DNA of 64,000 nt, taken from assembly GCF_037126435.1 (NCBI RefSeq), contig NZ_CP147020.1:1843293-1907292 (forward strand), read 5' to 3'. Below, piece after piece: positions 15,784 to 63,633 of the stretch. The notes beneath the pieces are model-generated. The model worked only from the letters and a program-made list of their open reading frames with translations, was not told where the DNA came from and did no database searches. The position numbers were made by a program, and so were the translations under genes. Position 1 is the stretch's first letter, and the number at the start of each line of letters is the position of its first letter. The DNA is from Bernardetia sp. ABR2-2B. Its GTDB lineage: Bacteria > Bacteroidota > Bacteroidia > Cytophagales > Bernardetiaceae.

Positions 15784-15867
15784 ATCTTAAAACCTTATTC
15801 TGTCACAAGAAATAAAACAGCTCTTGCTTGGCTTTGCTGAGTGAGAGGTTTTATTATATTTGAGTTT

Positions 15868-16698: not shown

Positions 16699-16730
16699 AT
16701 TATTTTATCAACCTTAGAGCCCCTGCGTTC

Positions 16731-16950
16731 TTGTTGGTGTTCCCATTTACAAAAACCCATAAAGCCGTTGTTGTGTCTTTAGTTTCGGTTTGCCGTTACG
16801 CTGACCAACAACAGAAACACGCATGAAACTATGGTAAACATTTTTTATATTTAACTTTTTTGTTTCGATAGTAAGTTCATAAATTGTCCGTGTATGTTTA
16901 TTGTTGGTCATCACAACGGCATTGCCGAAGTTAAAGACCAACAAGAACGC
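16731..16950. repeat. Two R2 repeat copies: 16731-16822 in reverse orientation and a degenerate forward copy at 16880-16950. Both contain the hairpin gttgttggtc-N25-gaccaacaac and the motif ccaacaagaacg.
   Basis: Match to copies at 17496, 32925, 33781 and 33955. Confidence 0.8.
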
Positions 16951-17399: not shown

Positions 17400-17590
17400 T
17401 GAATGTTGGGCGTTGTCTTTAGCGAAGCGATGACTACGACCTATCAGTTTGGCAAATCTTAGATTTGCGAGTGTCAGTATTTTTGTAATTACTGCGTTCT
17501 TGTTGGTGTTCCCATTTGCGAAAACCCACAAAGCCGTTGTTGTGTCTTTAGTTTCGGTTTGCCGTTACGCTGACCAACAACAGCGAGTAG
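17400..17590 (-). repeat. Composite R1 (17400-17500) plus R2 (17496-17590) repeat in reverse orientation.
   Basis: Reverse complement matches the R1 consensus (taattacaaaaatact...caaatctaagattt...gataggtcgtagtcatcg) and the R2 hairpin. Confidence 0.8.
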
Positions 17591-21442: not shown

Positions 21443-22484
21443 TAGTCATTGGATTATTGAGTATTTTTTTAATTTCTATTAATCCATATCTGAAAAAAGA
21501 GTATTCATTATATCCATTTGAACAGACTCTTATTTTTGTTTTTTTATGTTTCCATTCTCCTACTTTGTAACACCAAACAAAGGCAATGGAACACAAAGCA
21601 ATTAATTTAGCTATTTTATTTGGTTCTGTTAATTTTGTATTTTCTAAGTTAAAACCTTGTGATTTTAGTGCTTTAAACAACGTTTCGATTTCCCAACGTT
21701 GTTTATAAATTTCAAAAATATTATCCAATAAAACAGGTGATGCTAAATAAATATATCCTTTTTGTGTTCGACTTACAGATAAATATACCTCTGCTTCATT
21801 GACTACAAATGTTCCATCTAGTTGATAGGTTTCTGAAATCGAAAGCCCTCTACACCATGCTACAATAGACTTTGTTTTCCCTTTTCTAGTAGCTTTAAAG
21901 TTAGATTTTATACGCATTACAAAATCAAATTTTTTTGTAGCTAAATAGAAAAACCATTTTTTACCTATAAACTCTCTATCTGCTACAAGAGCAGTAATAG
22001 ATAAATTAGGAAATTGATTTAAGAAATCTTCTATCAAATCAATTCGTTGTTGAGTAGCTGAATTTCCTGTCCTCGAAAGTACAGACCAACAAAGAGGAAT
22101 AGATACCCCTTTATGAGCTGCTGAGAGAAGCAAAATATTAATATGCTCTTTTCCAACTTTCCAATTCGTTCTATCCAAACACAGTACGATATTTTCCCAT
22201 TGTTCAATGCCTTCTAAGGAAATAATCAAATTAGTAATTGCTTGAAAATCAAGCTCATAATAATTTAAAAAGCGTTCTATACGACGTAAAGAAGAACTGT
22301 ATTCTACATTCCTTTCAAACGCAGTTGCAATTTGAATTAAACCTCCTAGACCTACCTTTATAACAGCTATTACAAAAAGACCTATAAATTGAACTCGGGC
22401 TAAATGAAACCCTTTTAAATGAGAAGATAAAACACTAACTAATTTTGTAACTTTACCACTAGAAGCATACTTTGCTTTCGCCAT
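21396..22484 (-). CDS. IS4-family DDE transposase.
   Basis: 362-aa ORF with the IS4-type C-terminal motif YKQRWEIETLFKALK. Confidence 0.7.
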   Translation of the reverse strand: MAKAKYASSGKVTKLVSVLSSHLKGFHLARVQFIGLFVIAVIKVGLGGLIQIATAFERNVEYSSSLRRIERFLNYYELDFQAITNLIISLEGIEQWENIVLCLDRTNWKVGKEHINILLLSAAHKGVSIPLCWSVLSRTGNSATQQRIDLIEDFLNQFPNLSITALVADREFIGKKWFFYLATKKFDFVMRIKSNFKATRKGKTKSIVAWCRGLSISETYQLDGTFVVNEAEVYLSVSRTQKGYIYLASPVLLDNIFEIYKQRWEIETLFKALKSQGFNLENTKLTEPNKIAKLIALCSIAFVWCYKVGEWKHKKTKIRVCSNGYNEYSFFRYGLIEIKKILNNPMTSETKFDQKIKVLSME

Positions 22485-22551
22485 AATTGAGAAAAATTTT
22501 GTGAGAAACTCAATTATGGCTTTTTTTTATCTAAATTTAAAATCTTTTGTC
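21405..22551 (-). mobile_element. IS4-family insertion sequence (boundaries approximate).
   Basis: Imperfect terminal inverted repeats near 21405 (gacaaaactttaatttt) and 22551 (reverse complement gacaaaagattttaaattt) enclose the transposase gene. Confidence 0.5.
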
Positions 22552-23318
22552 AGAGGACTGAGGTTCAAACTACCTTTTTTATTATCATTTGATACAATTT
22601 TGATAGAGTCTATTTGCATTTCAAAAAATGGGTCTGCATTTGTTTTTATTTCTCCAAGAGACTTTTCTTCTAATACAAATATCATTTTTTTATCTTCTTG
22701 AGTAACGGCAGTTATTTCTGCTTGTGTTTCTTGCAAATTTTCTTGAGTTATATTTACTACCTCGTTATTTTCATCATCACTACTTAAGTCAGTTGTCAAA
22801 CCAATATTTTTACTAACATTTTCTTGTGTAGTTGCTTTTTGAGAAAAGCGAGAAGACTTTGTAATAACTTTAGATGAAGTAGTTTCATTTGATAATGTTT
22901 TTTTTGTATTAGATATAGAATTATTAATCTGATTTTCTGATACATTAGACTTTGTATTTTTATTTATATCAGACTGAATGGTTGAGTTTTCTGTGGCAGA
23001 ATTAGTATCTGATTTTTCTATATCAGAAGTCATGTTTGTTTCTTTTTTTACTGTTTGGTTAGTAGTGTTGCAAGTAAAGTTAGGAGAAGATATATTATTT
23101 TCAGATGAAATAATATATAATCCAATGCCAAGACTTGAAACTAAAATCAAACCTAAAGCTAAAAACCAGTAGAGAAATTTTGGTCTTGAAGATTTATCTA
23201 GTTGCTCAGAAATTTTGTCCCAGCCATCAAGAGGAGGCAGAGATTCCCATTCATTAACTTTGGAAAAGCTGTTTTTCCATTCAGAATCATTTTGAGAGTT
23301 GTGTATATTGTTGTCCAT
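22527..23318 (-). CDS. Putative anti-sigma factor with a single TM helix and an S/T/N-rich extracytoplasmic region.
   Basis: 263-aa ORF immediately downstream of the ECF sigma gene. It has a cytoplasmic N-terminus (W/E-rich) followed by a TM segment (FLYWFLALGLILVSSLGIGLYI) and a low-complexity tail. Its 3' end abuts the IS right end. Confidence 0.5.
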   Translation of the reverse strand: MDNNIHNSQNDSEWKNSFSKVNEWESLPPLDGWDKISEQLDKSSRPKFLYWFLALGLILVSSLGIGLYIISSENNISSPNFTCNTTNQTVKKETNMTSDIEKSDTNSATENSTIQSDINKNTKSNVSENQINNSISNTKKTLSNETTSSKVITKSSRFSQKATTQENVSKNIGLTTDLSSDDENNEVVNITQENLQETQAEITAVTQEDKKMIFVLEEKSLGEIKTNADPFFEMQIDSIKIVSNDNKKGSLNLSPLTKDFKFR

Positions 23319-32799: not shown

Positions 32800-33075
32800 A
32801 AAACACAAAAAAACTACTTGAACTGCAAATCTAAGATTTGCTAAAATGATAGGTAGTAGTCATCGCTGCGCTAAAGACAACGCCCAACATTCGTTTTTTT
32901 ACCTTTTATTTGGAACACTACGCACATCAGGTTTTTTTTTGGTTTTGTGGGAAGTTAGTAGATTTGTGAGGGTATTGTTTGTTGTTGGTCATCGTAACGG
33001 CAAACCGAAACTAAAGACCAACAACGGCTTCTTTATAATGCTTTGGTTTTTTTGGAAGACCAACAAGAACGCAGA
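32800..33075 (+). repeat. Composite R1 (32800-32935) plus R2 (32925-33075) repeat.
   Basis: R1 core gcaaatctaagatttgctaaaatgataggtagtagtcatcgctgcgctaaagacaacgcccaaca followed by the R2 hairpin gttgttggtcatcgtaacggcaaaccgaaactaaagaccaacaac. Confidence 0.8.
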
Positions 33076-33115
33076 TAAAGAATTAAAGCAACATCATAAT
33101 TACGACAATTAACTT

Positions 33116-33780: not shown

Positions 33781-34145
33781 ATACACTGTTGTTGGTCATC
33801 GTAACGGCAAACCGAAACTAAAGACCAACAACGGCTTCTTATCTAATGATTTGGACTTTTTGGAAGACCAACAAGAACGTAACAACGGCTTTTTTTACGT
33901 TTTTAGCAAATCGGAACACCAACAAGAACGTAGAATTTGAATAAAAATCTGTTTTTTTTTGATTTGAGTTTTTTGTTTTTTGTGGGAAGTTATTAGGTTT
34001 GTGGGGTGTGTTTGTTGTTGGTCATCGTAACGGCAAGCCGAAACTAAAGACCAACAACGGCTTCTTTCTAATGATTTGGATTTTTTGGAAGACCAACAAG
34101 AACGTAGACAACGCTTAACTACTACTGTTTTGGAACACTACGCTC
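33781..34145 (+). repeat. Two tandem R2 copies (33781-33925 carries three ccaacaagaacg motifs; 33955-34115) plus an R1-type terminal motif (ggaacactacgctcatcagg).
   Basis: Direct sequence match to the other R2 copies. Confidence 0.8.
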
Positions 34146-34673: not shown

Positions 34674-34788
34674 TGATATTATTGAATTATGATAGCACCT
34701 TTTTTACCGTTAAAATTGTAATTTATATGTTCACAAATGTTGGGCGTTGTCTGCAACTACGACCTATCAGTCCAGCAAGTCTTAGACC

Positions 34789-36224
34789 TTATCCTGTCCC
34801 ATAAACTTTTCAATTTTGGCTATTGTTTTGTATTGATTTTATTTATTTACTATTCTTACCTTCATTTTATGTTATATCAACCTTTGGAACATTGGAGCGA
34901 ACGAGAATTTATGGATTGTGGTGTTGAAGACTTACGAGAAGCGAAAAGTATTTCGAAGATGGCAGATAAATTATTAGCTACTCCAGAAAACTCTTTCAGT
35001 AGTAGCGTAGGTAATAGTCTACGAAAAGCAGCTTGGCGTATTTTTTCAAAGGAAGAAGTAGATATTAGCTACGGACATTATCGTCAATCTTCTCTTCGTT
35101 GTTCCTCTGAATCTATGGTTTTGGTTCACCAGGATACAACAGATTTGAATTTTGGAGGTCATTTGGCTAGTGAAGGTTTAGGTGACTTAGGAGGTAGTAC
35201 TGGCAAGCCTATTCTAGGTCTTTGTGTTCATAGTGCTTTAGTTACTACGGAAGCAGGTATTCCTTTGGGTTTGATTTCACAAAAGATATGGGCGCCTACA
35301 GTGGGCAGTAAAGAAAAAAAAGTAATTCCTCACCTTCCAATAGAAGAAAAAGAAAGTTATCGTTGGTTAGAGGCTCTACAAGATATTAGCCATCGTTTAA
35401 AAGATGTTTCTAAGGTAATTGTAGTTTCTGATAGAGAGAGTGATTTTTATGAATATATTGATGCTACTCGTGGTAGAAATGTGGAGTTGTTATTTAGAGT
35501 GCATCATTTACGTCGTAGAGTATATGCAAATGGAGAGAAGATAGCTTTAGGGCAAGTTAGTTTTTCATCATTATCAGAGATAGATGTTTTTCTACCTAAG
35601 AGCAAAACTAGAGAAGCTAGAAAAGCTCGTCTTACAATAAGCTAGGGAGATATTATTTGCCCACCTTCGCAAAGGAAAAAGGGATCAGAACATCATTTAT
35701 CTCTTATTATAGCTAAAGAAATGCACCCTCCCAAAGATCAAGAGGCAGTAGAATGGTATCTACTAACCACTCAAAAAATAGTTACCCTTCAACAGGCACT
35801 TCTTTGTATAGAACACTACAAAAAACGTTGGACTATTGAGCGTTGGCATTATGTGCTTAAACAGGGTTTACGAATAGAAAAACTACAGTTTGATACATTT
35901 ACTTCACTATCTAATGCTATCAGCTTACTCTCCATTGTAGCTTGGCAACTTTATTTGCTCAAAAAACTGGCAGAAGACTATGAAGATATTTCTGCTGATC
36001 AAGTATTGACAAAGATACAACTAGAGGTGTTAGGAAAACAAAGTCAGAAAAAAATACGCTACCTTCAAGAGGCTTTGATACGCATCGCTGTGTTAGGTGG
36101 ATTTACACCATCTAAAAAACAACCTCTACCTGGCGAAATGACAATATGGAAAGGGTATAAGATGCTTAGTTTAATAGTTCAAGGCTATAAACTGGCTAAC
36201 CCAAAAAAATATGGGACAGGATAA
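34789..36224 (+). mobile_element. IS4-family insertion sequence with perfect 12-bp terminal inverted repeats (TTATCCTGTCCC / GGGACAGGATAA) and a 9-bp direct target duplication GTCTTAGAC (34779-34787 and 36226-36234). It is inserted into the palindromic core of an R1 repeat.
   Basis: TIRs and TSD read directly from the sequence. Flanking halves at 34737-34788 and 36225-36275 together reconstitute an R1 element. Confidence 0.75.
34869..36224 (+). pseudogene. IS4-family transposase interrupted by a single in-frame TAG at 35643-35645. Both halves are in the same reading frame.
   Basis: ORFs 34737..35645 and 35721..36224 are both in frame 0 with no other stop between them. The C-terminal motif YKKRWTIERWHYVLKQ is typical of IS4. 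The likely start is the ATG at 34869, inside the IS. Confidence 0.65.
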
Positions 36225-36483
36225 GGTCTTAGACTTGCAAGTTAAGTAGGTATTTTTGTAATTACTGCTCTGTCTCGCAAGAAATAAAATGGCTATCACT
36301 CGTTTTTAACGAGTGATTTATATGTATTCGGCTTGTACTTGTAGCCATAATTTTTGTATTTTCTTTTCCGAGTTGTTGTTGTTTAGTTTTGATTTACCGT
36401 TACAGTTACCAAAAAAGACGAAAGTACAATCAAATAGTGAATAACTAGAAATTATTTATTTCAATCACTAAACTACCAAAAAA

Positions 36484-39922: not shown

Positions 39923-40216
39923 ATGCGAATAATTGCAAAAAGAACACTACGAGAATTTTGGGAAATACATGCTGATTGTGAACAGCAGTTGAAGGCGTGG
40001 TATAGTGAAATTGAAAAAGCAGACTTTCAAACCATAAATCAACTCAAAGAGAATTATCCTAATGCAAGTATTCTCAAAGAAAACAGAATTGTTTTCAATA
40101 TAAAAGGAAATAATTATCGCCTAATTGTAAAATTTAATTTTGAATTTCAAATCGGTTGGATACGATTCATAGGTACACACACCGAATATGACAAAATAAA
40201 TGCAAACGAAATATAA
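39923..40216 (+). CDS. higB: Type II toxin-antitoxin system HigB-family toxin (mRNA interferase).
   Basis: 97-aa ORF MRIIAKRTLREFWEIHADCEQQLKAWYSEI...NYRLIVKFNFEFQIGWIRFIGTHTEYDKI, which is characteristic of HigB/RelE-fold toxins. It is followed immediately by an HTH antitoxin. Confidence 0.7.
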   Translation: MRIIAKRTLREFWEIHADCEQQLKAWYSEIEKADFQTINQLKENYPNASILKENRIVFNIKGNNYRLIVKFNFEFQIGWIRFIGTHTEYDKINANEI

Positions 40217-40217
40217 G

Positions 40218-40577
40218 ATGAATATACAACCAATTACCACAGAAAAAGACTATCAAGAAGCATTAGAAAGGCTAGAATTTATTTTTGATGCAAAAAAAGG
40301 AACTCTAGAGGGAAATGAATTAGAAATTCTATCTATTCTGATAGATAAATATGAAAACGAAAACTTTCCTATCGAAATGCCAAACCCAATAGAGGCTATT
40401 AAATTTAGAATGGAACAAATGGGAATAAGCAATAAAGAACTTGCTGATATCTTGGGTTATAAAAGTAGAGTGAGCGAAATTTTTACTAAAAAAAGAAAAT
40501 TGAGTTTGGCTATGATACGCAAACTTCACACTCATTTGTCTATACCAACAGAAGTTTTGATTAGAGAATATAATTAA
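40218..40577 (+). CDS. higA: HigA-family antitoxin with an HTH (XRE-like) domain.
   Basis: ORF ending LIREYN with an HTH (GISNKELADILGYKSRVSEIFTKKRKLSLAMIRKL). The ATG at 40218 follows the higB stop directly. The track's alternative start at 40200 overlaps higB. Confidence 0.7.
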   Translation: MNIQPITTEKDYQEALERLEFIFDAKKGTLEGNELEILSILIDKYENENFPIEMPNPIEAIKFRMEQMGISNKELADILGYKSRVSEIFTKKRKLSLAMIRKLHTHLSIPTEVLIREYN

Positions 40578-40715: not shown

Positions 40716-40812
40716 AAAAAAGCCTTTCAAAAAATAAATTTTGAAAGGCTTTTTGATTATATAATGTATTGTTGGTGTCACTTTGCTAAAACACCAACAA
40801 CGGCATTTCAGA
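40716..40812. terminator. Two hairpins (aaagcctttcaaaa...ttttgaaaggcttt at 40716-40760; tgttggtgt...acaccaaca at 40773-40802) between higA and the 3' end of rpoC. The second resembles an R2 fragment (accaacaacggc).
   Basis: Inverted repeats read directly from the sequence. Confidence 0.45.
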
Positions 40813-40813
40813 A

Positions 40814-43800
40814 TTAACCTACTGTTTCAGTAGTTTCTTCTTCGTTTTCTGCTTCTAATGCTTCTAAACGCATTCTGTTTAATTGTGCTTCTGTACGAGT
40901 TGATTTTACATTTTCATCAGATAATGTATCTTCAAGTTTGTCATACGTTTTCTCATCATAAACGATAAGGTCTTCGTACTTACGCAACCCTGTACCTGCA
41001 GGAATAAGGTGTCCTACAATTACATTTTCTTTAAGACCGTTTAAGTCATCAGATTTACCACGTATAGAGGCTTCACTTAATACTTTTGTAGTCTCTTGGA
41101 AAGAAGCTGCTGACATGAAACTCTTCGTACCCAAAGATGCCTGTGTGATACCACGCAGAGTAGGCTTAGAAACTGCTGGTTGTGCTTCACGCACTTTAGC
41201 AATTTTCATATCCTTACGACGCAGACTAGAATTTTCATCTCTAAGCTCACGAGCCGTAATAATCATACCTACTTTTAGTTTGGTAGATTCTCCTACATCA
41301 GTAACGATTTTCTTATCCATAAATGAATCATTTTCTGCACGAACATCAAATTTATCTACAATTTGATTCGGCAGTAATGAAGTATCTCCCGGATCGATAA
41401 TCTCTACTTTCTGCATCATTTGGCGAACGATTACCTCAATATGCTTATCATTGATTTTTACACCCTGTAAGCGATAAACATCTTGAATTTCGTTAGTCAA
41501 ATATTCTTGAACTGCTGTTGGTCCTTTAATAGAAAGAATATCGGCTGGTGTAATTGCACCATCTGAAAGTGGCATACCTGCTTTTACAAAATCTTTCTCC
41601 TGTACGAGAATGTGTTTAGAAAGCTGAACCATATATTTCTTAATGATACCGTCTTTCTTAGATTCTACAAAAATTTCTCTGTTACCACGTTTGATTCCTC
41701 CGTAACTTACAATACCATCAATTTCTGATACTACTGCTGGGTTGGAAGGATTACGTGCTTCAAAAAGTTCTGTTACACGTGGAAGACCACCTGTAATATC
41801 TCTACTCTTCGAAACTGAACGAGGAATTTTCACTAAAATCTGACCTGCTTTTACTTGTTCTCCTTCTTCAATAGAAAGATATGCTCCAGCAGGAACATTA
41901 CTACTTGCAGATTCGCCTTTTGCATTTACGACAGTCAGCGTAGGATTTCGTGTCTTGTCTCTACTTTCAATAATGATTTTCTGACGGTGTCCTGTCTGCT
42001 CATCAGATTCTTCTTTATAAGTAATGCCTTCATCGATTCCTTCAAAATTCACTGTTCCATCATATTGAGAAAGGATAACAGCATTAAAAGGATCAAAGTT
42101 GTATAAAGCATCGTTCTTTTTGACCATCTGACCATCTTTAACAGTCAAGAATGAACCATAAGGAACATTGAGAGAAGCTAATACTTTAGAATTATTATCA
42201 GCATCTACAATTCGTAATTCACCATAACGTGACATAACTGCTTTTGCTTTCTTGCCTTCTTCATCAAGCGTGTCTATTGTCTGAACATCTTCTAAAATAA
42301 CCTTTCCATCTTTCTTAGCCTTAATAATAGGTTCAGCAGAAATGTTAGAAGCCGTACCACCAACGTGGAAAGTACGAAGTGTAAGCTGTGTACCTGGCTC
42401 TCCAATAGATTGAGCAGCAATTACACCAACTGACTCACCTTGCTGTACTAATTTTCCAGAGGCAAGATTTCGTCCATAACACATGGCACAAACACCTACA
42501 CGAGTTTCACAAGTAAGTACAGAACGTATATCTACTGCTTCTACACCTGCTTCTTCGGCACGTTTGGCTGCAACTTCATCTATTAGTTCGCCAGATTCAA
42601 TAAGAACTAGCTCTTCATTTTCTGGATGGAAAACATCTTGCAATGATATTCTACCCAAAATACGGTCAGAAATCGGTTCGATAGTTTCTTCTTGTTCTTT
42701 TAGAGCCGTTACTGTCAGTCCACGTAAAGTTCCACAATCAGTTTCATTTACGATAATATCTTGAGCAACATCTACCAAACGACGAGTAAGATAACCAGCA
42801 TCGGCAGTTTTAAGAGCAGTATCTGCAAGACCTTTCCTAGCACCGTGTGTAGAGATAAAGTATTCCAAAACGTCTAATCCTTCTTTAAAGTTAGAAAGAA
42901 TAGGGTTTTCGATGATTTCTCCTACCGAACCTTGTAAGTTCTTTTGAGGTTTAGCCATCAGACCACGCATACCACCTAATTGACGGATTTGTTCACGAGA
43001 ACCACGTGCGCCAGAGTGCATCATCATATAAATAGAATTAAATCCTTGTTCGTCAGTTTCTAACTGCTCCATCAATTCATCTGTAATTCTACGGTTTACT
43101 TTTGTCCAAATATCAATTACTTGGTTGTAACGTTCGTTATCAGTGATAAGACCCATAAAGTAGTTTTGAGTAATCGCTGCTACTTCGTCTTTAGCTTCTT
43201 GAACTAAACGCTCTTTATTTTCCGGAACTGGAATATTATTGATACCAATAGAAAGACCACCTCGGTAAGCTTGGTCGAAACCTAAAAATTTAATCTCATC
43301 TAAGAATTCGGCAGTACGAGCCATACCGACTTGCTTAACAATTTTAGAGATTACTTTTGTAAGTGTCTTTTTACTTAAAAGCTCATCAATATAACCAGCT
43401 TCTTCAGGAACACATTTATTAAATAAAACACGTCCTGCAACTGTTTCAATAGTTTTGTATTCTAATTCGCCAGTTTCTTCATTCAATACTTTTGTACGAA
43501 CGAAAATATAAGCGTGTTTAGAAATAGATTTATGATTGAGAGCCATGACTACTTCCTCTTCCGAGTAGAATCTCATGCCTTCTCCTTCAATTTTCAATTC
43601 TGGAATACTTCTTCTTCCTTTTGTCAAGAAATAAAGACCCAAAACCATATCCTGTGAAGGTACAGTAATCGGGCTTCCACTTGCAGGAGAAAGAATATTA
43701 TGAGAAGCAAGCATTAATAGAGAGGCTTCCAAAACAGCTTCTTGTCCTAGAGGGACGTGAACAGCCATTTGGTCACCATCAAAATCGGCGTTGAATGCCG

Positions 43801-45214
43801 TACAAACTAATGGGTGCAACTGAATTGCTTTTCCTTCAATAAGTTTTGGTTGGAAGGCTTGAATACCCAAACGGTGCAAAGTAGGCGCACGGTTGAGCAG
43901 AACAGGATGTCCTTTCAATACATTTTCCAAAATATCCCAAATTACTGGGTCTTTTCTATCAACAATTTTCTTCGCTGATTTTACAGTCTTGACGATACCA
44001 CGCTCAATAAGTTTGCGAATTACAAATGGCTTAAATAGCTCGGCAGCCATATTTTTAGGAAGACCACACTCATGAAGTTTGAGTTCTGGACCTACCACGA
44101 TTACCGAACGACCCGAGTAATCAACACGCTTACCCAAAAGGTTTTGACGGAAACGTCCTTGTTTACCTTTGAGCATATCTGAAAGTGATTTTAAGGCACG
44201 ATTACCATCACCACGAACAGCATTTACTTTACGAGAGTTATCGAAAAGAGAATCAACAGCTTCTTGAAGCATACGTTTTTCATTACGTAAAATTACTTCA
44301 GGAGCTTTAATATCTATAAGTCTTTTTAGACGGTTGTTACGAATAATAACACGACGGTATAAATCATTCAAATCCGAAGTTGCGAAACGTCCACCATCAA
44401 GGGGAACTAAAGGACGCAATTCTGGTGGAATGACAGGAACCATTTTGATAACCATCCAAGATGGCTCATTCGGAACATTTCTAGATTTGGCATCACGGAA
44501 TGCTTCCACTACACGCAAACGTTTCAAGGCTTCTGCCTTACGTTGTTGTGAAGTTTCGTTCATTGCTGCTGCACGTAAATCATACGAAAGCTGATCTAAA
44601 TCTAATCTAATTGGGTCAAGAAGCATAACAATTGCTTCTGCTCCCATTCTTGCTATGAATTTTGTAGGGTCAGAGTCATCTTTTTGCTGTTCTTCACGAG
44701 GTAATTTGTCCATAATGTCCAAATACTCGTCTTCTGTCAAAAAGTCTAAACGCTGCAATCCTTCATCTTCCATAGAACCAGGCTGTACTACGGCATAACG
44801 CTCGTAATAAATAATCTGGTCTAATTTTTTGGTTGGCAAACCGAGCAAATAACCTATTTTATTAGGCAATGAACGGAAATACCATATATGCGCCACAGGA
44901 ACAACAAGTTGAATGTGTCCCATGCGCTCACGACGGACTTTCTTTTCCGTTACTTCTACGCCACAACGGTCGCAGATGATTCCTTTATAGCGAATACGCT
45001 TGTACTTACCACAATGACACTCCCAATCTTTTACAGGTCCGAAGATACGCTCACAGAAAAGACCTCCCATTTCGGGTTTGTAGGTACGATAATTTATCGT
45101 TTCTGGTTGAGTAACTTCTCCGAACGAACTATTAAGAATAGATTCTGGAGATGCCAAGCTGATAGTGATTCGCTTGAAATCGTTTTTTAACTTTCTGTTC
45201 TTTTGGAACGACAT
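40814..45214 (-). CDS. rpoC: DNA-directed RNA polymerase subunit beta prime.
   Basis: 1466-aa ORF with a canonical N-terminus ([36 protein letters not shown]) and the NADFDGDQM catalytic motif. Confidence 0.95.
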
Positions 45215-45414
45215 GGGCGATGCAGTTTTGATTTTGGAGTAACAATCTACAAAGTTAGGAAAAAAAATTGAAAATTCCTTTTTTTATATGAAATATTTTT
45301 GTAGGTAATAGATTTTTGTTTTACGGTACAAGATTGAGTAAAAGGCAGATTTTTATTTTCAAGTAAATACAAAATATTTACTTAGTTGTTGGGCTTAGTT
45401 TGTAACTAAGAACT

Positions 45415-45586
45415 ATCAATTATATATCTTCAAATTTATGTGGTCAAGTAATTACAAAAATACTTACTTGACTTGCAAATCTAAGATTTAGCTACGCTGA
45501 CTTAAAAGTTGCTGAAATGATAGGTCGTAGTCATAAACAACGCTTAGCAATTTTTCTCTAGTTTTTTTGAACACTACGTCCATCTG
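45415..45586 (+). repeat. R1 repeat copy (full length, ~150 bp).
   Basis: About 88% identical to the copy at 45950-46106. It contains taattacaaaaatact, the aaatctaagattt palindrome, gataggtcgtagtcat and ggaacactacg. Confidence 0.85.
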
Positions 45587-45663
45587 GGAGGCTTAAAAAC
45601 TAGACAAAAAAAATGTCTGACGCATGACACGCCAAACATTAAACAAATGATAAATTTTATTTT

Positions 45664-45826
45664 AGTAAGCTAGTAGATTGAAGTCCAAATCTAAGTCTTC
45701 GGCATACTCTTCGCCACTTTCGCCTCCGATAATTTTGCTAGAATCTTGAATTTTCATTTTCTCAAATTTCTTAATTTCAACTTTCTCACTTTTTACAGAA
45801 GTAAAAAAACTTTTTAACTTTTTCAT
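45664..45826 (-). CDS. Small ORF (54 aa) with an acidic C-terminus, flanked by direct R1 repeats.
   Basis: MKKLKSFFTSVKSEKVEIKKFEKMKIQDSSKIIGGESGEEYAEDLDLDFNLLAY. Not in the ORF track (below 60 aa). Confidence 0.3.
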
Positions 45827-45949
45827 AAATTCAAATTTTAATTAGTAATAAAAATCAAATATACTCAAAATCAGTCACTTAACAAGTGAAAGATTACTTT
45901 AATATTTTCATGATATTCCTTTTCAAAAGATTTATTTATAATAATATCA

Positions 45950-46106
45950 GTTATATAAACCTTCAAATTTATGTTGTCAAGTAATTACAAAACTACCTAC
46001 TTGACCTGTAAATCTAAGATTAGCTACGCTGACTTAAAAGTTGCTGAAATGATAAATCATAGTCATAGACAACGCTTAACTGATAATTTTTGGGAACACT
46101 AATAGG
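45950..46106 (+). repeat. R1 repeat copy, a direct repeat of 45415-45586.
   Basis: Sequence alignment by eye, about 88% identity. Confidence 0.85.
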
Positions 46107-46115
46107 AATGGAGTA

Positions 46116-46547
46116 TTATTTAAAAAAAGGGTTAGCAGTTATAGCAAAATAACTTGCTGTTATAGAAGGTAATTCATTTCCTGCATAAGAATAAACGCTA
46201 CCATATACCCATATAAGTATATCAGATTCTGAATTATCACTATTATAAACAGCAACTATCCATTTATTAGAAGAAATATTTTTCATTTTTAAATACCCTC
46301 CTTTCTTTTTTGTGTAAACTTCACCCACATATAAAAGTAATCCCATAAGATTACTGTATGTACTTTCTTTAGAAATTTCATTGCCAATTAAAAAATTGTC
46401 AATATAGTAAAGACTTTCTTCGCTATAATCCATTTTCTCACTAGACAGTCCTATATTTTTTATTGTATGCTTGATTAAATCATTTTTATGCTCTAGTAGT
46501 TTGCTACCATAAACATTTATATCTGCTAAAACATGTGAGTTTCTCAT
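46116..46547 (-). CDS. Hypothetical protein (ORFan).
   Basis: 143-aa ORF with no motif I recognise. Confidence 0.35.
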   Translation of the reverse strand: MRNSHVLADINVYGSKLLEHKNDLIKHTIKNIGLSSEKMDYSEESLYYIDNFLIGNEISKESTYSNLMGLLLYVGEVYTKKKGGYLKMKNISSNKWIVAVYNSDNSESDILIWVYGSVYSYAGNELPSITASYFAITANPFFK

Positions 46548-46699
46548 TTCCTTTGTGGTTTTACAATTAAAAATAAGAAATATAACAAAAAATAAAAAAT
46601 TTCTTTATAAACATTGAAATAGAGTATTTTAGTATTTATTGAACTGAAAAATCAAGTAAAGTAGGTTCAAAATTAGAGTTTGTTTTTGCATCTATTTTA

Positions 46700-46760
46700 A
46701 TCACAACTATTGGACGTTGTCTTTAGCGCAGCGAACGACCTATCAATTTTACAAGTCTTC
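46700..46760 (-). repeat. R1 repeat fragment in reverse orientation (ttggacgttgtctttagcgcagcgaacgacctatcaa...caagtcttcagacttaaac).
   Basis: The reverse complement matches the R1 core including the caagtcttcagacttg palindrome. Confidence 0.75.
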
Positions 46761-46838
46761 AGACTTAAACTAAAAACTCAAATATATTAAATAGGCAGTG
46801 TTTTCATATTCTTTTGGCGAAATGCTACAATAAAAAAA

Positions 46839-49781
46839 CTAAAACCTAGTTACAAATTCAATTATAGTTTCTAAAATCTGTTTTCCTTCATTCAATTCTA
46901 CTTTGTTTTTTCTCAAAAATTTTAAAGTAATTCCGAAAAGTGAAGCTTGATTCACTTCAAACTCTTTTACTTTATCAAAATCTAGTTCTGTTTCTGAATG
47001 TAGAAAAGTGGTTTTGTCGTACCAGATTTTACTTTCCTTCTCAAACCAAATTTTAACTATTTTTTTAGTCTTTACTTTTTTGGTTTCTTCTTCAAAAAGT
47101 TCTACAACTTCAAATTCAATTTTGCTTTTAGATTCCTTCAAAAACTTCTGTAACAAAAACTCTCCTTTGTTGGCAAAATGATGGAAATCTTTATAAATAG
47201 GAACTCTAGGAACTTCATGTTTTAGCTCTTCTTTATATTTATGTTTGAATATATCACGCTGCCAAACAGCAAAAATATAACCCAAGATAAGCTCATTTGT
47301 CATATTCTCTTCTGTCGGAACTACAAAATTTTCAGCTTCTTCTTTTTCTAGCTTTTGCCAATAATTTTCTATAAAATCAATCGCATTTTCTCCACTTCTA
47401 AAATATTTTTTCAATACTTCAAAGCTTTCTTTATTTCGTGCAGCTTTATTTTCTAACCTTTCAAAAGTTCGTTTTGCATTCTTAAAAACCTTTATGATTT
47501 GCTCAAACTGTATGTAAGTATTCGTTTCTGGCTGGTGCAGATTTTCTAGTAGTTCTTTAGTCATCTTGAACTCATCTTTATCTACGATATTTGACAAAGC
47601 TCTCAACTCAAAAGCCAGTTCTTGATTCACTTGCAAAAACTCAAAATCAGATAAATCAAAAAGAAAACTCAAAGATTGTTCTACTTTTTCGATTCTTTTT
47701 TCAAATGCTGCTGCATATCCTCTTCGAAACTTAGAGAGTATATTCTTTGAGAAGTTTATTCTTTTTCTTGTTTTATTTCCTTCAACTTTATCATAAATAT
47801 AAAAAGGAAAAATATAAGCATTTGGTAAAATTTCATTTAAAAAACTAGGAGGAACAGGCTTATTAGTTGCCCAAATTTCGCCTCCATTTGACGTATTTGT
47901 CCAAAAAACCAAGATATTTTCGCCTTGTTTTCGATTTGGAAAAATTTTATCTAAGTCGTAAAACTCTTCAAAAACTGATTTTTCATAATACCAAAAACCA
48001 TTTTTAAAAACAGAAACCTGCGTTTCGATTAAATTTTTCTCATTAAATTCTAATGGTTTATTTACTATTTTTTGATTTATTTTTCCTTCAACTTTTCCCT
48101 CAATTATTTTTATAGTATCCTTTTCAAAAAGTGTATTTGCTGCTAGTTTGGAGACTAAAACGTTTTTCTTTTTTTCTAACTTATCCTTAACTTTTTCTTC
48201 TGACTTTTCAATTTGTTGATTATAATTTTGAAGAAATATTTTTACTTTGTTTTTCAAATTATTTTTAGAATAATTATCTGAATTTGGTTCAATGAAATTT
48301 TCTATTTTTTGTGTTGGAACGGCTCTAAAATAGGTTTTAAAAATAGCATTTTTATTTCCTTTTAAATTATCAGAACCAGCAGCAGGGATAAGTTTGTGAT
48401 ACTCTGACAAAACTGGTTTCGGTTTCCATGTATTTTGAATAAAATGATTTGAAAAATTGACAACATCTTTATTTAGATTCGAATAAAAAACTCCTTTTTC
48501 TAATGCTGTATTTTTATGAAAAATAATTGCTAAACCTTTCTCATTTTTTTCTTGATTTTCATAAATTTCAATTCTCTCAAACCACTCTTGCAACAAACGA
48601 CGAAAAGAAGACAATGATTTTTTTTCTAGTATATTTTTCTGATTTTCATTTAATAAAACTATCAAAACTCCATTCTCTGAAAGTGATTTAAAGTTATTTT
48701 GAATAGAATTGAAAAGCTGCTTTTCTGTCTTATTTAAGGATTGAAAAAGCAAATTTACTTTTGTAGAAATAAGATTATGTTTATCAACATCTAAAACAAT
48801 TAAATCATAATTTGATTCAGAGTTTATTTTATTTACTGATTCAGAATTTTTAGAAAGTCCAAAAATTCCCACTTGTGAAATTATTTTTTTGGCTGCAAAA
48901 GCAAACTGTGAAGTTTCATTTTGAGTAGAAAAAACCAAAAGCAAATCGGCAAAACTTTCAAATGTTCCGAAAAGATTTTTTTTCTTAAATTCTTGATTTT
49001 CAGTATTTAACTCTAATGATTTCAAGATTGTAGTATCATTCATCCAAATCTTTTTGTTTTTAGATTTGATTTCATTTATTTTTTGTTGAATAATGGGAAT
49101 AAAATCCAAACTAAAGCTATCATTTTGCTTCAAAAACTTATTCAAAATTCCATATAACAGACCTTCACTTTCCTTTATTTTATACTTTTGAGAAAAATCG
49201 TTTACGAACTTTTCTATTTCAAAATAAGACGAAGGAATTTCGTTTTTGTGGGAGTTGTTTAAAAACAAACGTAATGATTTAAGAATTTCATTTCTCTGAA
49301 AAAACGACTTTTTAAAATTACTTTGTTCATACATTGTTTGCCAAAACTCAAAAATAGCAATCCATTCAGAAAGTAAATAAATTGAATGTCCACCTTCTTC
49401 CAAAAGCTGAATAATAGGTTGTAACTCTTCTTTTTGAGCTACTGAAAAACCCTTTCGAAACTGATGTTGAATTTCTTTTTTTCTTCTTATAAAATCTGCT
49501 TTAGCTTGTTCTGAAAGTAGTTTTTCTTTTTGACAAAATTCTTTTTGTAGGTTATTTAGTTCTTCTAAAAACTGTATTACAGCCTCATTAAGTTGCTTAT
49601 AATCAGCGATTAAAATAGACTTTTCTTGAATCGAAGTAATTTTTAATTTATCCTTTTCTACTTCTATTTTTGCCCAAATTACTTCGTTTTCATCCCAAAG
49701 TTGAAACTGCAGAGCCGAAAACTGCACTAGTTTTAGTGCAGGAAAATATTTTTTAAAAAAAGATAAAAGAGAAATCTCCAT
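46839..49781 (-). CDS. Large lysine-rich hypothetical protein (980 aa) of unknown function. It is not rpoB.
   Basis: Long uninterrupted ORF with no catalytic motif I recognise. A possible weak Rossmann-like stretch (QVGIFGLS...YDLIVLDVD...GVLIVLLNE) is not convincing. Confidence 0.45.
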   Translation of the reverse strand: MEISLLSFFKKYFPALKLVQFSALQFQLWDENEVIWAKIEVEKDKLKITSIQEKSILIADYKQLNEAVIQFLEELNNLQKEFCQKEKLLSEQAKADFIRRKKEIQHQFRKGFSVAQKEELQPIIQLLEEGGHSIYLLSEWIAIFEFWQTMYEQSNFKKSFFQRNEILKSLRLFLNNSHKNEIPSSYFEIEKFVNDFSQKYKIKESEGLLYGILNKFLKQNDSFSLDFIPIIQQKINEIKSKNKKIWMNDTTILKSLELNTENQEFKKKNLFGTFESFADLLLVFSTQNETSQFAFAAKKIISQVGIFGLSKNSESVNKINSESNYDLIVLDVDKHNLISTKVNLLFQSLNKTEKQLFNSIQNNFKSLSENGVLIVLLNENQKNILEKKSLSSFRRLLQEWFERIEIYENQEKNEKGLAIIFHKNTALEKGVFYSNLNKDVVNFSNHFIQNTWKPKPVLSEYHKLIPAAGSDNLKGNKNAIFKTYFRAVPTQKIENFIEPNSDNYSKNNLKNKVKIFLQNYNQQIEKSEEKVKDKLEKKKNVLVSKLAANTLFEKDTIKIIEGKVEGKINQKIVNKPLEFNEKNLIETQVSVFKNGFWYYEKSVFEEFYDLDKIFPNRKQGENILVFWTNTSNGGEIWATNKPVPPSFLNEILPNAYIFPFYIYDKVEGNKTRKRINFSKNILSKFRRGYAAAFEKRIEKVEQSLSFLFDLSDFEFLQVNQELAFELRALSNIVDKDEFKMTKELLENLHQPETNTYIQFEQIIKVFKNAKRTFERLENKAARNKESFEVLKKYFRSGENAIDFIENYWQKLEKEEAENFVVPTEENMTNELILGYIFAVWQRDIFKHKYKEELKHEVPRVPIYKDFHHFANKGEFLLQKFLKESKSKIEFEVVELFEEETKKVKTKKIVKIWFEKESKIWYDKTTFLHSETELDFDKVKEFEVNQASLFGITLKFLRKNKVELNEGKQILETIIEFVTRF

Positions 49782-49998
49782 TGTTAAAGATATAATTTTT
49801 CAGAATTACTATTGAAGCTTCGAAAATATTTGATTTGTTAAATCTTAAAACAAAAATACGTTTTTTTTCTTATTACTGTCTATTTGTCAGTCGTCTAAAC
49901 AACGGCTTTATTTTAGCAAAAATTTTTGTAAGTTAAGCTAAACTGCTAATAAAATACTGAAATAATTCACTTATACATTATACAAAAACCATTTTTAT

Positions 49999-50694
49999 AT
50001 GTTTGACCCAAAGAAGTTTCACAATACCGAATTTTATAAACACGCTCACAAACATCAAGGCGTTCCTACTACGACATTAGAAGGATATGCAAAACAAAGC
50101 ATCACAAACTTTACTCCTTATATTATCGAAGAGCGTCAGCTTAATGTTGCTCAAATGGATGTTTTTTCTCGTTTGATGATGGACAGAATTATCTTTTTGG
50201 GAGTTCCTATTGACGACCAAGTTGCAAATATCGTAACGGCTCAACTTCTATTTTTAGAATCTGCTGACCACGAAAAAGATGTTTTGATGTACTTAAATAG
50301 CCCTGGTGGTTCTGTGTATGCAGGTTTAGGTATTTATGACACAATGCAATATATTCGTCCTGATGTAGCTACACTTTGTACTGGTTTGGCTGCTTCTATG
50401 GGTGCAGTTTTATTGACGGCTGGAGAAAAAGGCAAACGTACAGCACTTCCTCACGCTCGTGTAATGATTCACCAACCATTAGGAGGTATTCAAGGACAGG
50501 CATCTGATATTGAGATTACAGCAAAACAAATTTTGATAGTTAAGAAAGAATTAACACAAATTTTGGCTGACCAGTCTGGACAAGATTACGAAACAGTTGA
50601 AAGAGATTGCGACCGTGATTATTGGATGATTGCACCAGAAGCAAAAGAATACGGCTTGATTGATGAAGTTTTAGAGCGCAAGAAACAAGACTAA
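49999..50694 (+). CDS. clpP: ATP-dependent Clp protease proteolytic subunit.
   Basis: 231-aa ORF with the catalytic Ser region ([15 protein letters not shown]) and the His motif (MIHQPLGG). Confidence 0.9.
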
Positions 50695-52191: not shown

Positions 52192-52841
52192 TTATTTTCA
52201 AAAATTATCAAAAAACAAAAAAAACTACTTTCATAATCGTTTTATCTAAGCTAAATTTGTAGATTGTATCATTAATTGTTTAAGCTTTTTAAAACAAGAT
52301 TTTTACTTTAATTAAAATTTTAAAAAAAGTTGTTTAAAAAGTATTTGACAAATACTCAACTGCTTATTCATTTTGATATATTTTTCTCTAAAAAAAAGAG
52401 AAATAATCTTGACCGTACAACTACGATAAATCATTTTTATTTTTTCATAAAATAGGGTTTGCAAACTCTATCTTATGAAAAAGACATTGCATAAATTATC
52501 TTCATAGATTTTATCAAAAAATAAAAATGACTTTTTCCATATATAGCAAAATAAAACAATTCTGAATTTTAATCTAATCAATTGATTTACAGAAACTTAT
52601 ACATAAAATTAATTTAAAGTTTTTACTATACATAAAAATAAAAACTAATTTTGAGCATTTTAAACCCTAGTGTTTTCAAAATCCTTAGGGTTTCGAACCA
52701 TTTTGCGTGTGTAACAAAGATTATTTATTCTTTTTAGAGAAATGAATCTGTTTTTTTGTGATTTTTTTATAAAAAAACAGGTTAGAAGCGAATAAATGTA
52801 AATTATTAATTATGAGTGGTTTTAAATTCTAATTTAAAACA

Positions 52842-52900
52842 TTCGTAATTCGTAATTGAAAATTAGCTATGCTGATTATTTCATAATTCGTAATTATTCC
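52842..52900. repeat. Heptamer tandem motif attcgtaattcgtaattga (52842-52860) plus a partial copy taattcgtaatt (52884-52895), upstream of rny.
   Basis: The same 19-mer occurs at 58201-58219 and 63615-63633. Confidence 0.8.
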
Positions 52901-52931
52901 TTATTCATTCAATCTAAAGAAAATATATATA

Positions 52932-54618: not shown

Positions 54619-56604
54619 ATGAATTTCAAATTTATAGATTTATTTGCTGGAATTGGTGGTTTTCATTTGGCTATGCACAGACTTGGAGGAGAATGTGTTT
54701 TTGCTTCTGAACTAGATGATTTTGCACGTCTTACGTATCAAGAAAATTATCAAAAAATATCTCCTAAGTTATTTGAAGATGATTTATTTAATAAGGATAT
54801 TCGAACAGTTAGTCCAAAAGATTTACCTGATTTTGATGTTCTTTGTGCTGGTTTTCCGTGTCAGCCATTTAGTCAAGCAGGATATAAAAGAGGTTTTGCA
54901 GATAATCATAATTCAGAGAGAGGAAATTTATTTTTTAATATTGCTGAAATTTTGGAAGCAAAAAAGCCAAAAGCATTTTTCTTGGAAAACGTTCGTGGTT
55001 TGGTTACGCATGATAAAGGCAAAACTTTTAAAATCATTCGAAATATTATTGAAAATGAGTTAGGATATTCTTTTTATTATAAAGTCGTTCATGCATCTGA
55101 TTATGGTTTGCCACAACTAAGACCGAGAGTTTTTATAGTGGGTTTTAGAGATGAAAGTTTTATGAGTAGCTTTAATTTTCCTTCTCCTATTCCTTTAAAG
55201 TTTACGATGAGCGATGTTTGGGGGGGAGAATGTAGCCGAGAAATTGGTTTTACTATTCGGGTCGGTGGACGTGGTTCGGCTATTACTGACCGTAGAAATT
55301 GGGATAATTATTTGGTTGATGGACAGACAAAACGCTTGTCTTATATAGAAGCCAAAAAAATGCAGGGTTTTCCAGATGATTTTGAGTTTCCTGTTAGCAA
55401 AACACAAGCTATAAAACAGTTGGGAAATAGTGTGGCTGTGGATGCCGTTGAAGCTGTTGCAAAAAGTTTATTACAACACTTACAAACACTTGAAAATAAT
55501 CAAATTACACAAAACTCTAACTCTGACGAAATGGCAATCAAACCTACTAAAAATAAAGGAGAATGGACTGAGTTACTACTTTTTATAAAATTGCTATTAG
55601 ATAAAAAATTATATCTATCTGACAAAAACCTCAATACCACAAGCAGTTATTTTAAAATAAATAAAGTAACAACACACAATTTAGATTTGGAGTTTCTCTT
55701 ATCAAACTCTTCTACAATTATATCAAAAAATAAATTCGACAAGACAGAAAAACAAATCAGTATTTCTAAAATAATTACTCCTTCTATCATTCAATCTTTT
55801 GTTGAAAAAATAAAAAAGGAAAAAGGCACATTCGAAATTCCATCATTTAATATTATTCAAGATGAATTGGGTTTTAATGTTGTAAAAGGTGGAAATAGCA
55901 ATCAAAAAGCTGATATTTTATTAGATATTGAAAACGAAATTATACAAAAAGAAAACGAAGGCTTTGGAATAAAATCATATTTAGGAAGCAAACCAACGCT
56001 ATTAAATGCGTCTGGAAATACAAATTTTATATTCAAGGTAAATGGTATAGAAAAAGGCAATAAAACTATTATTGATGAGGTAAATCAAATAAATACAAGA
56101 ACAAAACTAAAGGATAGAATCAATAAAATAGAAGAGCTAGGTGGAAACTTTGAATATTTGGGAGCAGAAAGAGATACAATGGATTTTAACCTTAAAATGA
56201 TAGATAGTCAGATGCCAAAACTGATAGGAGAAATTCTACTTTGTTTTTATAAAGAACGAGTTTCTTCCATCGAAAAAATCACCAAGAGAATCATAGGAAA
56301 GGAGAAGGACGAAGAAATTTTACTAAAAAACAAAATCAAAAATCTATTGGTAAGTATCCTTTTAGGTTTCTTTGCAGGAACAAAATGGGATGGTGCATTT
56401 CAATCTAATGGAACAATCGTAATGAAAAATAATGGCGACTGTGTAGGTTTCCATATTGTAGAAATGGAGAATCTGAAAAATTATTTATTTGAAAATATTA
56501 AATTAGATATGCCTTCTACAACTAGACACCGTTTTGGACAACTTTATTCTGAAAAAAATGGAGAGTTATTTTTTAAATTAAATTTACAGTTACGTTTTAG
56601 TTGA
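54619..56604 (+). CDS. DNA (cytosine-5)-methyltransferase (aa 1 to ~290) fused to an uncharacterised ~370-aa C-terminal domain.
   Basis: C5-MTase motif I FIDLFAGIGGF, motif IV GFPCQPFSQAG, motif VI ENVRGL and motif X QLGNSVAV. The C-terminal half (from ~LQTLENNQ) has no MTase motifs. It has D/E/K clusters (ADILLDIENEIIQK) compatible with a PD-(D/E)xK nuclease, but this is not verified. Confidence 0.75.
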   Translation: MNFKFIDLFAGIGGFHLAMHRLGGECVFASELDDFARLTYQENYQKISPKLFEDDLFNKDIRTVSPKDLPDFDVLCAGFPCQPFSQAGYKRGFADNHNSERGNLFFNIAEILEAKKPKAFFLENVRGLVTHDKGKTFKIIRNIIENELGYSFYYKVVHASDYGLPQLRPRVFIVGFRDESFMSSFNFPSPIPLKFTMSDVWGGECSREIGFTIRVGGRGSAITDRRNWDNYLVDGQTKRLSYIEAKKMQGFPDDFEFPVSKTQAIKQLGNSVAVDAVEAVAKSLLQHLQTLENNQITQNSNSDEMAIKPTKNKGEWTELLLFIKLLLDKKLYLSDKNLNTTSSYFKINKVTTHNLDLEFLLSNSSTIISKNKFDKTEKQISISKIITPSIIQSFVEKIKKEKGTFEIPSFNIIQDELGFNVVKGGNSNQKADILLDIENEIIQKENEGFGIKSYLGSKPTLLNASGNTNFIFKVNGIEKGNKTIIDEVNQINTRTKLKDRINKIEELGGNFEYLGAERDTMDFNLKMIDSQMPKLIGEILLCFYKERVSSIEKITKRIIGKEKDEEILLKNKIKNLLVSILLGFFAGTKWDGAFQSNGTIVMKNNGDCVGFHIVEMENLKNYLFENIKLDMPSTTRHRFGQLYSEKNGELFFKLNLQLRFS

Positions 56605-58005: not shown

Positions 58006-58196
58006 AGCTAGTCAGATTCTTAGGTTTTAAGAAAAATCAAAAACTATTGCTAATCGTATAACGTTTGCAAAAGTATAAGACCTTTTTTATAAATTTATTG
58101 AATAGAATCAAGCAAAACAAAGTAGGTCAATCTCCTATTCCAAATTATTGGAATTGTAATTTTATTGATATAAATAAATGTATCATAATCGTAACT

Positions 58197-58219
58197 TTTA
58201 ATTCGTAATTCGTAATTGA
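58197..58219 (+). repeat. Heptamer motif tttaattcgtaattcgtaattga, 9 bp upstream of the pspA-like ATG.
   Basis: Identical 23-mer at 63611-63633. Confidence 0.8.
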
Positions 58220-63479: not shown

Positions 63480-63610
63480 AATTATATTTTATTTTGATTC
63501 TGTATATTGATAAATATTCTATTTATAAATAATGTTTGAGATAGAATAAAGTTTAAGCTATTTTTGTGAGAGTTCTATAAAATGGAATATATTATTTCGT
63601 GATTTTTAAT

Positions 63611-63633
63611 TTTTAATTCGTAATTCGTAATTG
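63611..63633 (+). repeat. Heptamer motif tttaattcgtaattcgtaattga ending 3 bp before the GT2 start codon.
   Basis: Identical to 58197-58219. Confidence 0.8.

Follow-up and report, generated by a model that had tools for sequence, protein, structure and literature searches.

An rpoC gene without rpoB in Bernardetia sp. ABR2-2B: evidence for an old, clade-wide separation of the two genes within the Cytophagales

Why does a complete rpoC gene stand in a bacterial chromosome without rpoB in front of it? The adjacency of rpoB and rpoC is among the most conserved in bacteria, and it is usually explained by the co-expression and co-assembly of these largest subunits of RNA polymerase. The question is raised by a 64 kb stretch of DNA from Bernardetia sp. 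ABR2-2B (Cytophagales), called here the window, in which rpoC (40814..45214, minus strand) encodes a complete beta' subunit of 1466 amino acids (aa) with all five Rpb1 domains (Pfam Rpb1 domains 1-5) present from residue 11 onward. The product matches the NCBI RpoC protein of this strain (P0144) at 100% identity, and is 94–96% identical to RpoC of other Bernardetia and 75–80% to that of other Cytophagales; the GC content of the gene is 37–40%. A tblastn search with a Cytophagales rpoB query gave zero matches in the entire window, and the canonical arrangement, a co-directional rpoB just upstream across a short spacer, is not found at this rpoC.

The DNA upstream of rpoC carries on the same strand an open reading frame (ORF) of 54 aa (45662..45826), an ORF of 143 aa (46116..46547) and an ORF of 980 aa (46839..49781), followed by the divergent clpP (49999..50694, plus strand). 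Two direct copies of a repeat named R1 lie around the 54-aa ORF: R1a (45414..45552) and R1b (45945..46101), which are 89.6% identical over 135 nt (45414–45546 against 45945–46078). A fragment of R1 (46705..46791) occurs at the 3' end of the 980-aa gene. All these elements, as well as the completeness of rpoC and the lack of rpoB upstream of it, had been described in an earlier note on this DNA and were confirmed. The same note, however, explained the arrangement by a repeat-delimited island that replaced rpoB. Our analysis confirms the feature itself but not this reading of it: what stands here is neither an island nor an artefact, and no new kind of system either.

To place the locus among its relatives, we scanned one genome per species with the rpoC protein and kept 80 loci. 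In 71 of these, from Cytophagales and other Bacteroidota, rpoB is located directly upstream of rpoC, with a gap of mostly 27–140 nt. It is absent within the full 10 kb upstream of rpoC in the loci L001 (94% rpoC identity), L004, L005 and L020; L002, too, lacks it over the 437 nt of its available upstream DNA. In a neighbour-joining tree of rpoC, the loci lacking rpoB and the window form one clade, and monophyly, tested on 11 of the clade loci without rpoB, was recovered in 198 of 200 bootstraps. Five further proteins from a protein-database search, which the tree predicted to be clade members (P0051, P0019, P0124, P0102 and P0089), were then looked up; they come from Rapidithrix thailandica, two JGI contigs, a coral-metagenome contig and a Thermoflexibacter-like contig, and all five loci lack rpoB within 10 kb upstream. 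No rpoB is present over this distance in Bernardetia litoralis DSM 6794, Bernardetia sp. MNP-M8 and Wsw4-3y2 either; the loci without rpoB within 10 kb of rpoC thereby include L085–L092. In total, rpoB is missing from 14 of the 14 clade loci having an upstream flank of at least 10 kb, while the 71 outgroup loci keep the adjacency. The clade includes Bernardetia, other Bernardetiaceae, and Thermoflexibacter-like and Rapidithrix-like lineages. As judged from these comparisons, the separation of rpoC from rpoB is an old, inherited, clade-wide character of a Cytophagales group.

The surroundings of rpoC differ strongly within this clade. It is the sole gene common to the window and the flanks of L001, L004, L005 and L020. 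In B. litoralis and L001 the upstream neighbour is a gene for a tetratricopeptide repeat (TPR) protein; MNP-M8 and Wsw4-3y2 have a divergent thioredoxin cluster there, and ABR2-2B has the series of R1, 54-aa, 143-aa and 980-aa elements. Our literature search found no report of an rpoB/rpoC split in Cytophagales or Bacteroidetes, which supports novelty only weakly, since the arrangement can be read from public annotations.

What, then, drives the transcription of a detached rpoC? Alignment of four Bernardetia genomes revealed 85–90% identity over about 92 nt before the rpoC start codon and no similarity further upstream. In the window this block occupies 45215..45306 (minus strand), and at 85–90% identity it recurs beside rpoC in B. 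litoralis, MNP-M8 and L001, a metagenome-assembled genome (MAG). On the evidence of these alignments, it is the only upstream DNA that travels with rpoC, and it may be considered a promoter-leader block. It contains a candidate –7 box of the Bacteroidetes type, TAACTTTG (45250..45257, minus strand), which precedes the ATG by 43 nt. The primary sigma factor of Bacteroidetes recognises the consensus –33 TTTG / –7 TAnnTTTG, as known from promoter studies in Bacteroides and Flavobacterium, and the box is a perfect match to TAnnTTTG. This motif was found 33–72 nt upstream of the rpoC start codon in all 13 split-clade loci examined, whereas the 71 loci that keep rpoB adjacent have no such motif from –25 to –70; at the background rate of the window, about 0.06 occurrences are expected per 46-nt span. 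In addition, lineages other than Bernardetia and L087 share a GTTCAAA-like sequence after the –7 box (GTTCTAAA in L020). These data indicate that rpoC very probably has its own promoter.

The idea of an own promoter had already been put forward, with a location inside the repeat region. The first part of this suggestion agrees with the conserved –7 box; the second does not hold, since the conserved block 45215–45306 ends 108 nt short of R1a, placing the candidate outside the repeats. A scan for sigma-70-type promoters did reveal a near-consensus site, TTGACC-17-TATAAT, inside R1a, directed toward rpoC. We discounted this site because the consensus of the Bacteroidetes primary sigma factor is different and the site is not conserved in relatives.

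Terminator-like hairpins are predicted on both sides of the rpoC unit. Upstream, just after the stop codon of the 54-aa ORF, a 12-bp stem is followed by UUUUUUUU with its U8 tract (45602..45640, minus strand; –13.8 kcal/mol, z = –4.0), and this structure probably insulates rpoC from upstream transcription. Downstream, just 3' of rpoC, a bidirectional hairpin has a perfect 16-bp stem between an A-run and a U-run (40716..40754; folding energy –22 kcal/mol, z = –7.8). Monocistronic transcription of rpoC would be consistent with this layout. The region of the upstream hairpin also gave a match to the L10 leader (RF00557; 45599–45720, minus strand), which includes a UGCCGAAGAC match together with the hairpin. 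L10 leaders head rplJL-rpoBC operons. This match scored 26.2 bits against the Rfam gathering threshold of 44 and was rejected as a chance one, since it consists mostly of hairpin and U-run, overlaps the 54-aa ORF and is sub-threshold; RF00557 had no match at the canonical Cytophagales rplJ regions, and nothing in the window reached an Rfam gathering threshold.

Taken as a whole, we regard the following scenario as quite likely. rpoC would have been detached from rpoB once, in the common ancestor of Bernardetia and a wider Cytophagales clade, and would since then represent a stand-alone transcription unit, driven by its own promoter with the TAnnTTTG –7 box (the leader would be about 30 nt long in the window) and closed by a strong terminator. 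Only the promoter-leader of about 92 nt would have remained attached to rpoC, and the DNA beyond it would have been reshuffled repeatedly, even within the genus. In ABR2-2B, a strain-specific rearrangement would have set rpoC beside the 3' end of the clpP/980-aa pair, with R1 copies of the window accumulating at the rearrangement junctions. A broader formulation, to which we give about even chances, is that a single ancient uncoupling marks a multi-family Cytophagales clade and was made viable by a vertically inherited promoter-leader of about 90 nt, the boundary of which later became a recurrent breakpoint decorated in Bernardetia by a palindrome-cored repeat.

Several points weigh against this scenario. 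The tree is a neighbour-joining one based on a single protein. rpoB itself was not located for ABR2-2B or any other clade member, and none is present in the clade loci among the 92 fetched. Inspection by eye revealed no clear –33 TTTG at the canonical spacing of 19–21 nt, the window having TTTC, and in B. litoralis a TTTG precedes the –7 box by only about 14 nt; the activity of the rpoC promoter is deduced from the motif and its conservation. The correspondence between repeats and breakpoints comes from comparing one 64-kb window with about 45 kb of one relative. Nor is R1 confined to breakpoints, as one copy (15850–15975) occupies an intergenic region that is conserved apart from it.

One alternative denies rpoC a dedicated promoter and suggests that it is transcribed by read-through from the co-directional 980-aa, 143-aa and 54-aa genes, since all four genes are on the minus strand and are separated by gaps of only 290–450 nt. 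However, the terminator-like hairpin with the U8 tract lies between the 54-aa ORF and rpoC, and the –7 box is conserved clade-wide. Moreover, rpoC of MNP-M8 and Wsw4-3y2 has a divergent gene upstream, and therefore read-through cannot supply it there, yet the same 92-nt block is kept. We consider read-through improbable.

Alternatively, the detached rpoC may be an extra paralogue, with a canonical rpoBC operon located elsewhere in these genomes. This suggestion draws on the fact that rpoB with its surroundings was not retrieved for any clade member, but the properties of rpoC itself make it very improbable. The gene is full length, it is 75–80% identical to its orthologues and branches where taxonomy predicts, and its raised GC content (37–40%) is as expected of a core, highly expressed gene. 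The cluster at 90% identity holds one rpoC per Bernardetia genome, no second Bernardetia cluster or other Bernardetia-named rpoC occurs among the best 120 matches, and each clade MAG gives one locus among the 80 kept.

The explanation offered by the earlier note supposes that a recently acquired accessory island, delimited by repeats, inserted between rpoB and rpoC or replaced rpoB, uncoupling the pair at this locus. It is suggested by the direct R1 repeats and low GC content upstream of rpoC (25–30% at 45–50 kb against about 32% for the window), and by the 54-aa and 143-aa ORFs missing from the fetched relatives. However, every clade locus tested has the same split, each in a different neighbourhood, and this sharing of the split among relatives, unrelated to the repeats, refutes the island interpretation. 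Several other expectations of an island fare no better. No integrase, recombinase or transposase was detected in 45215–49998 (Pfam, NCBIfam and PADLOC; ORFs of at least 50 aa), and no rpoB occurs beyond the far side within 18.8 kb. No more than about 400 nt, with the 54-aa ORF, lie between the direct R1 copies, which are not att-like delimiters, and R1 represents a dispersed family found also in other Bernardetia. Finally, the 980-aa/clpP part is conserved across the genus and takes other positions relative to rpoC in other genomes, being far from it in three of them, so that the 980-aa gene, itself low in GC, has long belonged to the genus. An island of recent origin is therefore scarcely credible. 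Practically negligible is the remaining explanation, a misjoin of the assembly at the R1 repeats with rpoB and rpoC adjacent in the real chromosome: repeats of about 90% identity do lie 530 nt apart at the junction, but an assembler would probably not be misled by repeats of 135 nt with only 90% identity, the source record consists of one contig of 5.3 Mb, rpoB is also lacking in four other complete Bernardetia chromosomes and many independent MAGs, and a misjoin could affect at most the strain-specific rpoC/980-aa junction, not the split.

If rpoC was separated from rpoB long ago, how did it come to stand beside the 980-aa gene? Answering this requires the history of the two partners. clpP (Pfam CLP_protease, E = 4e-79) is 83–96% identical and syntenic in three other Bernardetia genomes, and the 980-aa gene is always divergently paired with it in B. 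litoralis, OM2101 and MNP-M8, where rpoC is absent from the 980-aa/clpP loci. Beyond clpP, MNP-M8 has an EgtB-like gene, genes for RNase Y, an HpaII-type restriction-modification gene, and genes for Rpe, DnaJ, PspA and RecR, and this run matches the 50–60 kb region of the window gene for gene. The pairing is thus conserved across the genus, and this half of the supposed "island" is old resident DNA. Within the matching run, a single 661-aa ORF of the window (54619–56604, plus strand) has both a C5 cytosine methyltransferase domain and a complete HpaII restriction endonuclease domain; its MNP-M8 orthologue is called as 548 aa.

The 980-aa protein, an ORF correctly described in the earlier note, was there termed hypothetical, which is no longer adequate in view of its Pfam match and its orthologues in Bernardetia. 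It is restricted to Bernardetia: only 17 homologues were found, all Bernardetia-like, with 61–72% identity. Residues 814–926 match Pfam PF18135 (Type_ISP_C) with E = 3.5e-24, partially, over profile positions 181–287 of 342, and NCBI names the protein a type ISP restriction/modification enzyme. This name derives from a partial match to the target-recognition domain, and the PADLOC and Protein Data Bank (PDB) matches cover only about 50 residues of that domain. A scan with regular expressions revealed no NPPY-like, FxGxG, Walker A, DEAD/H or PD-(D/E)xK motifs. A type ISP enzyme would unite an Mrr-like nuclease, an SF2 helicase-like ATPase, motifs of an N6-adenine methyltransferase and a C-terminal target-recognition domain within a single chain. 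We did not accept the protein as such an enzyme, as the methyltransferase, helicase and nuclease motifs were not found.

The junction of rpoC with the 980-aa gene occurs only in ABR2-2B. It spans 45307–46838 (1.6 kb) and includes three R1 copies, two small ORFs and one terminator. Synteny between the window and MNP-M8 breaks at about 16.7–17.6, 28.1–36.6 and 45.2–46.8 kb, where R1 and a second repeat, R2, cluster. The segment from NAD kinase to a 569-aa gene lies beside the 980-aa gene in MNP-M8 and B. litoralis, but at 17.6–27.1 kb in the window. The genes located downstream of rpoC in MNP-M8 (the small subunit of ribonucleotide reductase, a 191-aa gene, then 194-aa and 685-aa genes and onward) map to 36.6–38.6 kb and 6.4–16.7 kb of the window. 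Since the MNP-M8 neighbours are scattered in this way, the placement of rpoC beside the 980-aa gene is a strain-specific rearrangement that involved more than one event. One inversion, with the oppositely oriented R1 copies at 15.85 and 46.75 kb as its ends, was considered and found insufficient for converting the MNP-M8 order into that of the window; at least 2–3 events are needed.

A separate disruption was observed at 20678–23318, where one 487-aa gene of MNP-M8 corresponds to two ORFs, of 254 and 263 aa, each matching one half of it. The 362-aa ORF between them has a weak similarity (28% identity) to a DDE transposase of B. litoralis. The halves being parted by a transposase-like ORF, an insertion sequence (IS) appears to have disrupted the 487-aa gene.

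What is the repeat that accompanies these junctions? At least eight copies of R1 are present in the window, at about 15.85, 17.4, 32.8, 34.75, 36.2, 45.4, 45.95 and 46.7 kb. Parts of R1a match the copies at 17.45, 32.8, 34.75 and 36.2 kb and L083:22022–22098, and the fragment at 46705–46791 is inverted relative to the copy at 15850–15941 (88% over 92 nt). R1 was also detected in two other Bernardetia genomes (L001:15406–15520, and OM2101, L083:22022–22098). All copies of R1 and R2 are intergenic, all but one are in non-syntenic junctions, and none is in the long syntenic stretches. The core of R1 is palindromic and reads CAAGTCT.AGACTTG or, where the two sides have changed in concert (one compensatory change), CAAATCT.AGATTTG, and internal long-range pairing is predicted. 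The whole element folds no better than shuffled sequence (z = –1.2 to –1.5) and matches no Rfam family.

Being short (about 90–160 nt), non-coding, multi-copy, intergenic and present in related genomes, R1 has the properties of a dispersed repeat. From its sequence and distribution it fits best among the dispersed intergenic repeats of the repetitive extragenic palindromic (REP) or miniature inverted-repeat transposable element (MITE) type; it occurs genus-wide and is not an island boundary. It resembles REP elements, the bacterial interspersed mosaic elements (BIMEs) and MITEs in being short, intergenic and multi-copy, in occurring in several genomes of Bernardetia, in its palindromic core and in gathering at rearrangement junctions, but differs from MITE/REP elements in that no terminal inverted repeats or target-site duplications have been demonstrated and the fold of the whole element is not significant. 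R1 marks the rearrangement junctions and perhaps promotes them.

R2 represents a family of about 92–148 nt with 79–97% identity, which occurs in both orientations (16723–16814, 17492–17583, 32931–33078, 33787–33887 and 33968–34113) and clusters with R1 in the non-syntenic junctions. An insertion sequence of the IS4/Tn5 family (34788–36226, 1439 bp) has perfect terminal inverted repeats of 16–17 bp (CTTATCCTGTCCCATA...) and a 9-bp target-site duplication, GTCTTAGAC, at 34779–34787 and 36227–36235. It interrupts an R1 repeat exactly within the palindromic core. Its transposase is split into two ORFs, one with Tnp_DNA_bind and the other with DDE_Tnp_1 and Dimer_Tnp_Tn5, and the element is therefore probably inactive. 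The possibility that R1 represents the ends of a nearby insertion sequence was ruled out: this element has its own terminal inverted repeats and 9-bp duplication, and it sits inside R1.

Both small ORFs of the junction are strain-specific, being not found in the fetched relatives. The gene status of the 54-aa ORF is uncertain: it has no Pfam, NCBIfam or PADLOC match, and no tblastn match in any fetched locus. Its product has a lysine-rich N-terminus ending in KIIGG and then an acidic tail of 19 residues; KIIGG resembles the double-glycine leader peptides common in Bacteroidetes, and no family model matched. The 143-aa protein had been taken for an ORFan, but a library of 1.84 billion representatives yielded 26 remote homologues (26–36% identity), so that it belongs to a small uncharacterised family. 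Neither this protein nor its homologues have a Pfam family. The AlphaFold2 model of the protein has a pLDDT of 91, and a PDB search gave it one fold match, to the uncharacterised structural-genomics protein BT_1490 (TM 0.62).

How does the separated rpoC compare with known arrangements? In the canonical rplKAJL-rpoBC operon of E. coli, most bacteria and most Cytophagales (adjacency was found in 71 of the 71 outgroup loci examined), rpoC has the same product and domain architecture and is likewise bounded by a strong terminator. The difference is that here no rpoB is located upstream, and a conserved promoter-leader of its own would replace co-transcription. Other departures from the canonical organisation are the fusion of rpoB and rpoC in Helicobacter and Wolbachia and the rpoC1/rpoC2 split in cyanobacteria and plastids. 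These are likewise lineage-wide, vertically inherited clade markers of beta/beta' organisation. In the fused and split cases, however, the genes stay contiguous, whereas here intact genes lie more than 18–40 kb apart and would be transcribed independently. A conceptual parallel is provided by unlinked 16S and 23S rRNA operons, described as widespread in bioRxiv 10.1101/705046: they too represent a normally co-transcribed, stoichiometrically coupled core pair for information processing that is separated in some lineages, but the genes are different and the comparison is conceptual only.

A clade that has long lived with distant rpoB and rpoC, presumably under separate promoters, suggests that the linkage of these genes is not obligatory. 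If our scenario is true, these bacteria would offer a natural system for asking how the beta:beta' stoichiometry holds without co-transcription, and cultured organisms such as Bernardetia litoralis DSM 6794 suit the study of subunit balancing without an operon. The split would also be a simple and rare genomic character delimiting the clade. For annotation and genome scanning, the absence of rpoB beside rpoC need not mean an island or a misassembly.

Some minor observations concern the surroundings of rpoC in other Cytophagales. L072 (1–706), a Cytophagales MAG outside the split clade and near the Microscillaceae-like L053, has 706 nt upstream of rpoC without rpoB or TAnnTTTG; it may represent a second independent split or a long insertion. 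Large inserts between rpoB and rpoC occur in some Cytophagales that keep rpoB (L055 at 7957–9948, L043 at 8350–10000, and L069, L071 and L067), and the spacer therefore tolerates insertions in this order. For example, the insert of Arcicella gelida carries a co-directional 663-aa ORF with no Pfam match, and a Hymenobacter MAG has a 1.65-kb rpoB-rpoC gap with small PIN-domain and aspartyl-protease-like ORFs. Just downstream of rpoC, on the opposite strand, AhpC/Redoxin-like and thioredoxin-like genes are located in L087 (14395–17272) and L088 (14454–15648), an arrangement common to Rapidithrix thailandica and a Bernardetiaceae-like contig, and these neighbours may preserve a trace of the surroundings that the detached rpoC had in the ancestor. 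In the window, rpoC is adjoined downstream, on the opposite strand, by a toxin-antitoxin pair of a HigB toxin and a helix-turn-helix (HTH, HigA-like) protein (39923–40577, plus strand), which is missing at the corresponding position in B. litoralis and MNP-M8. Finally, short intergenic arrays of the heptamer/octamer TTCGTAAT(T) are present in the window at 11305–11341, 52837–52910, 58183–58219 and 63591–63627.

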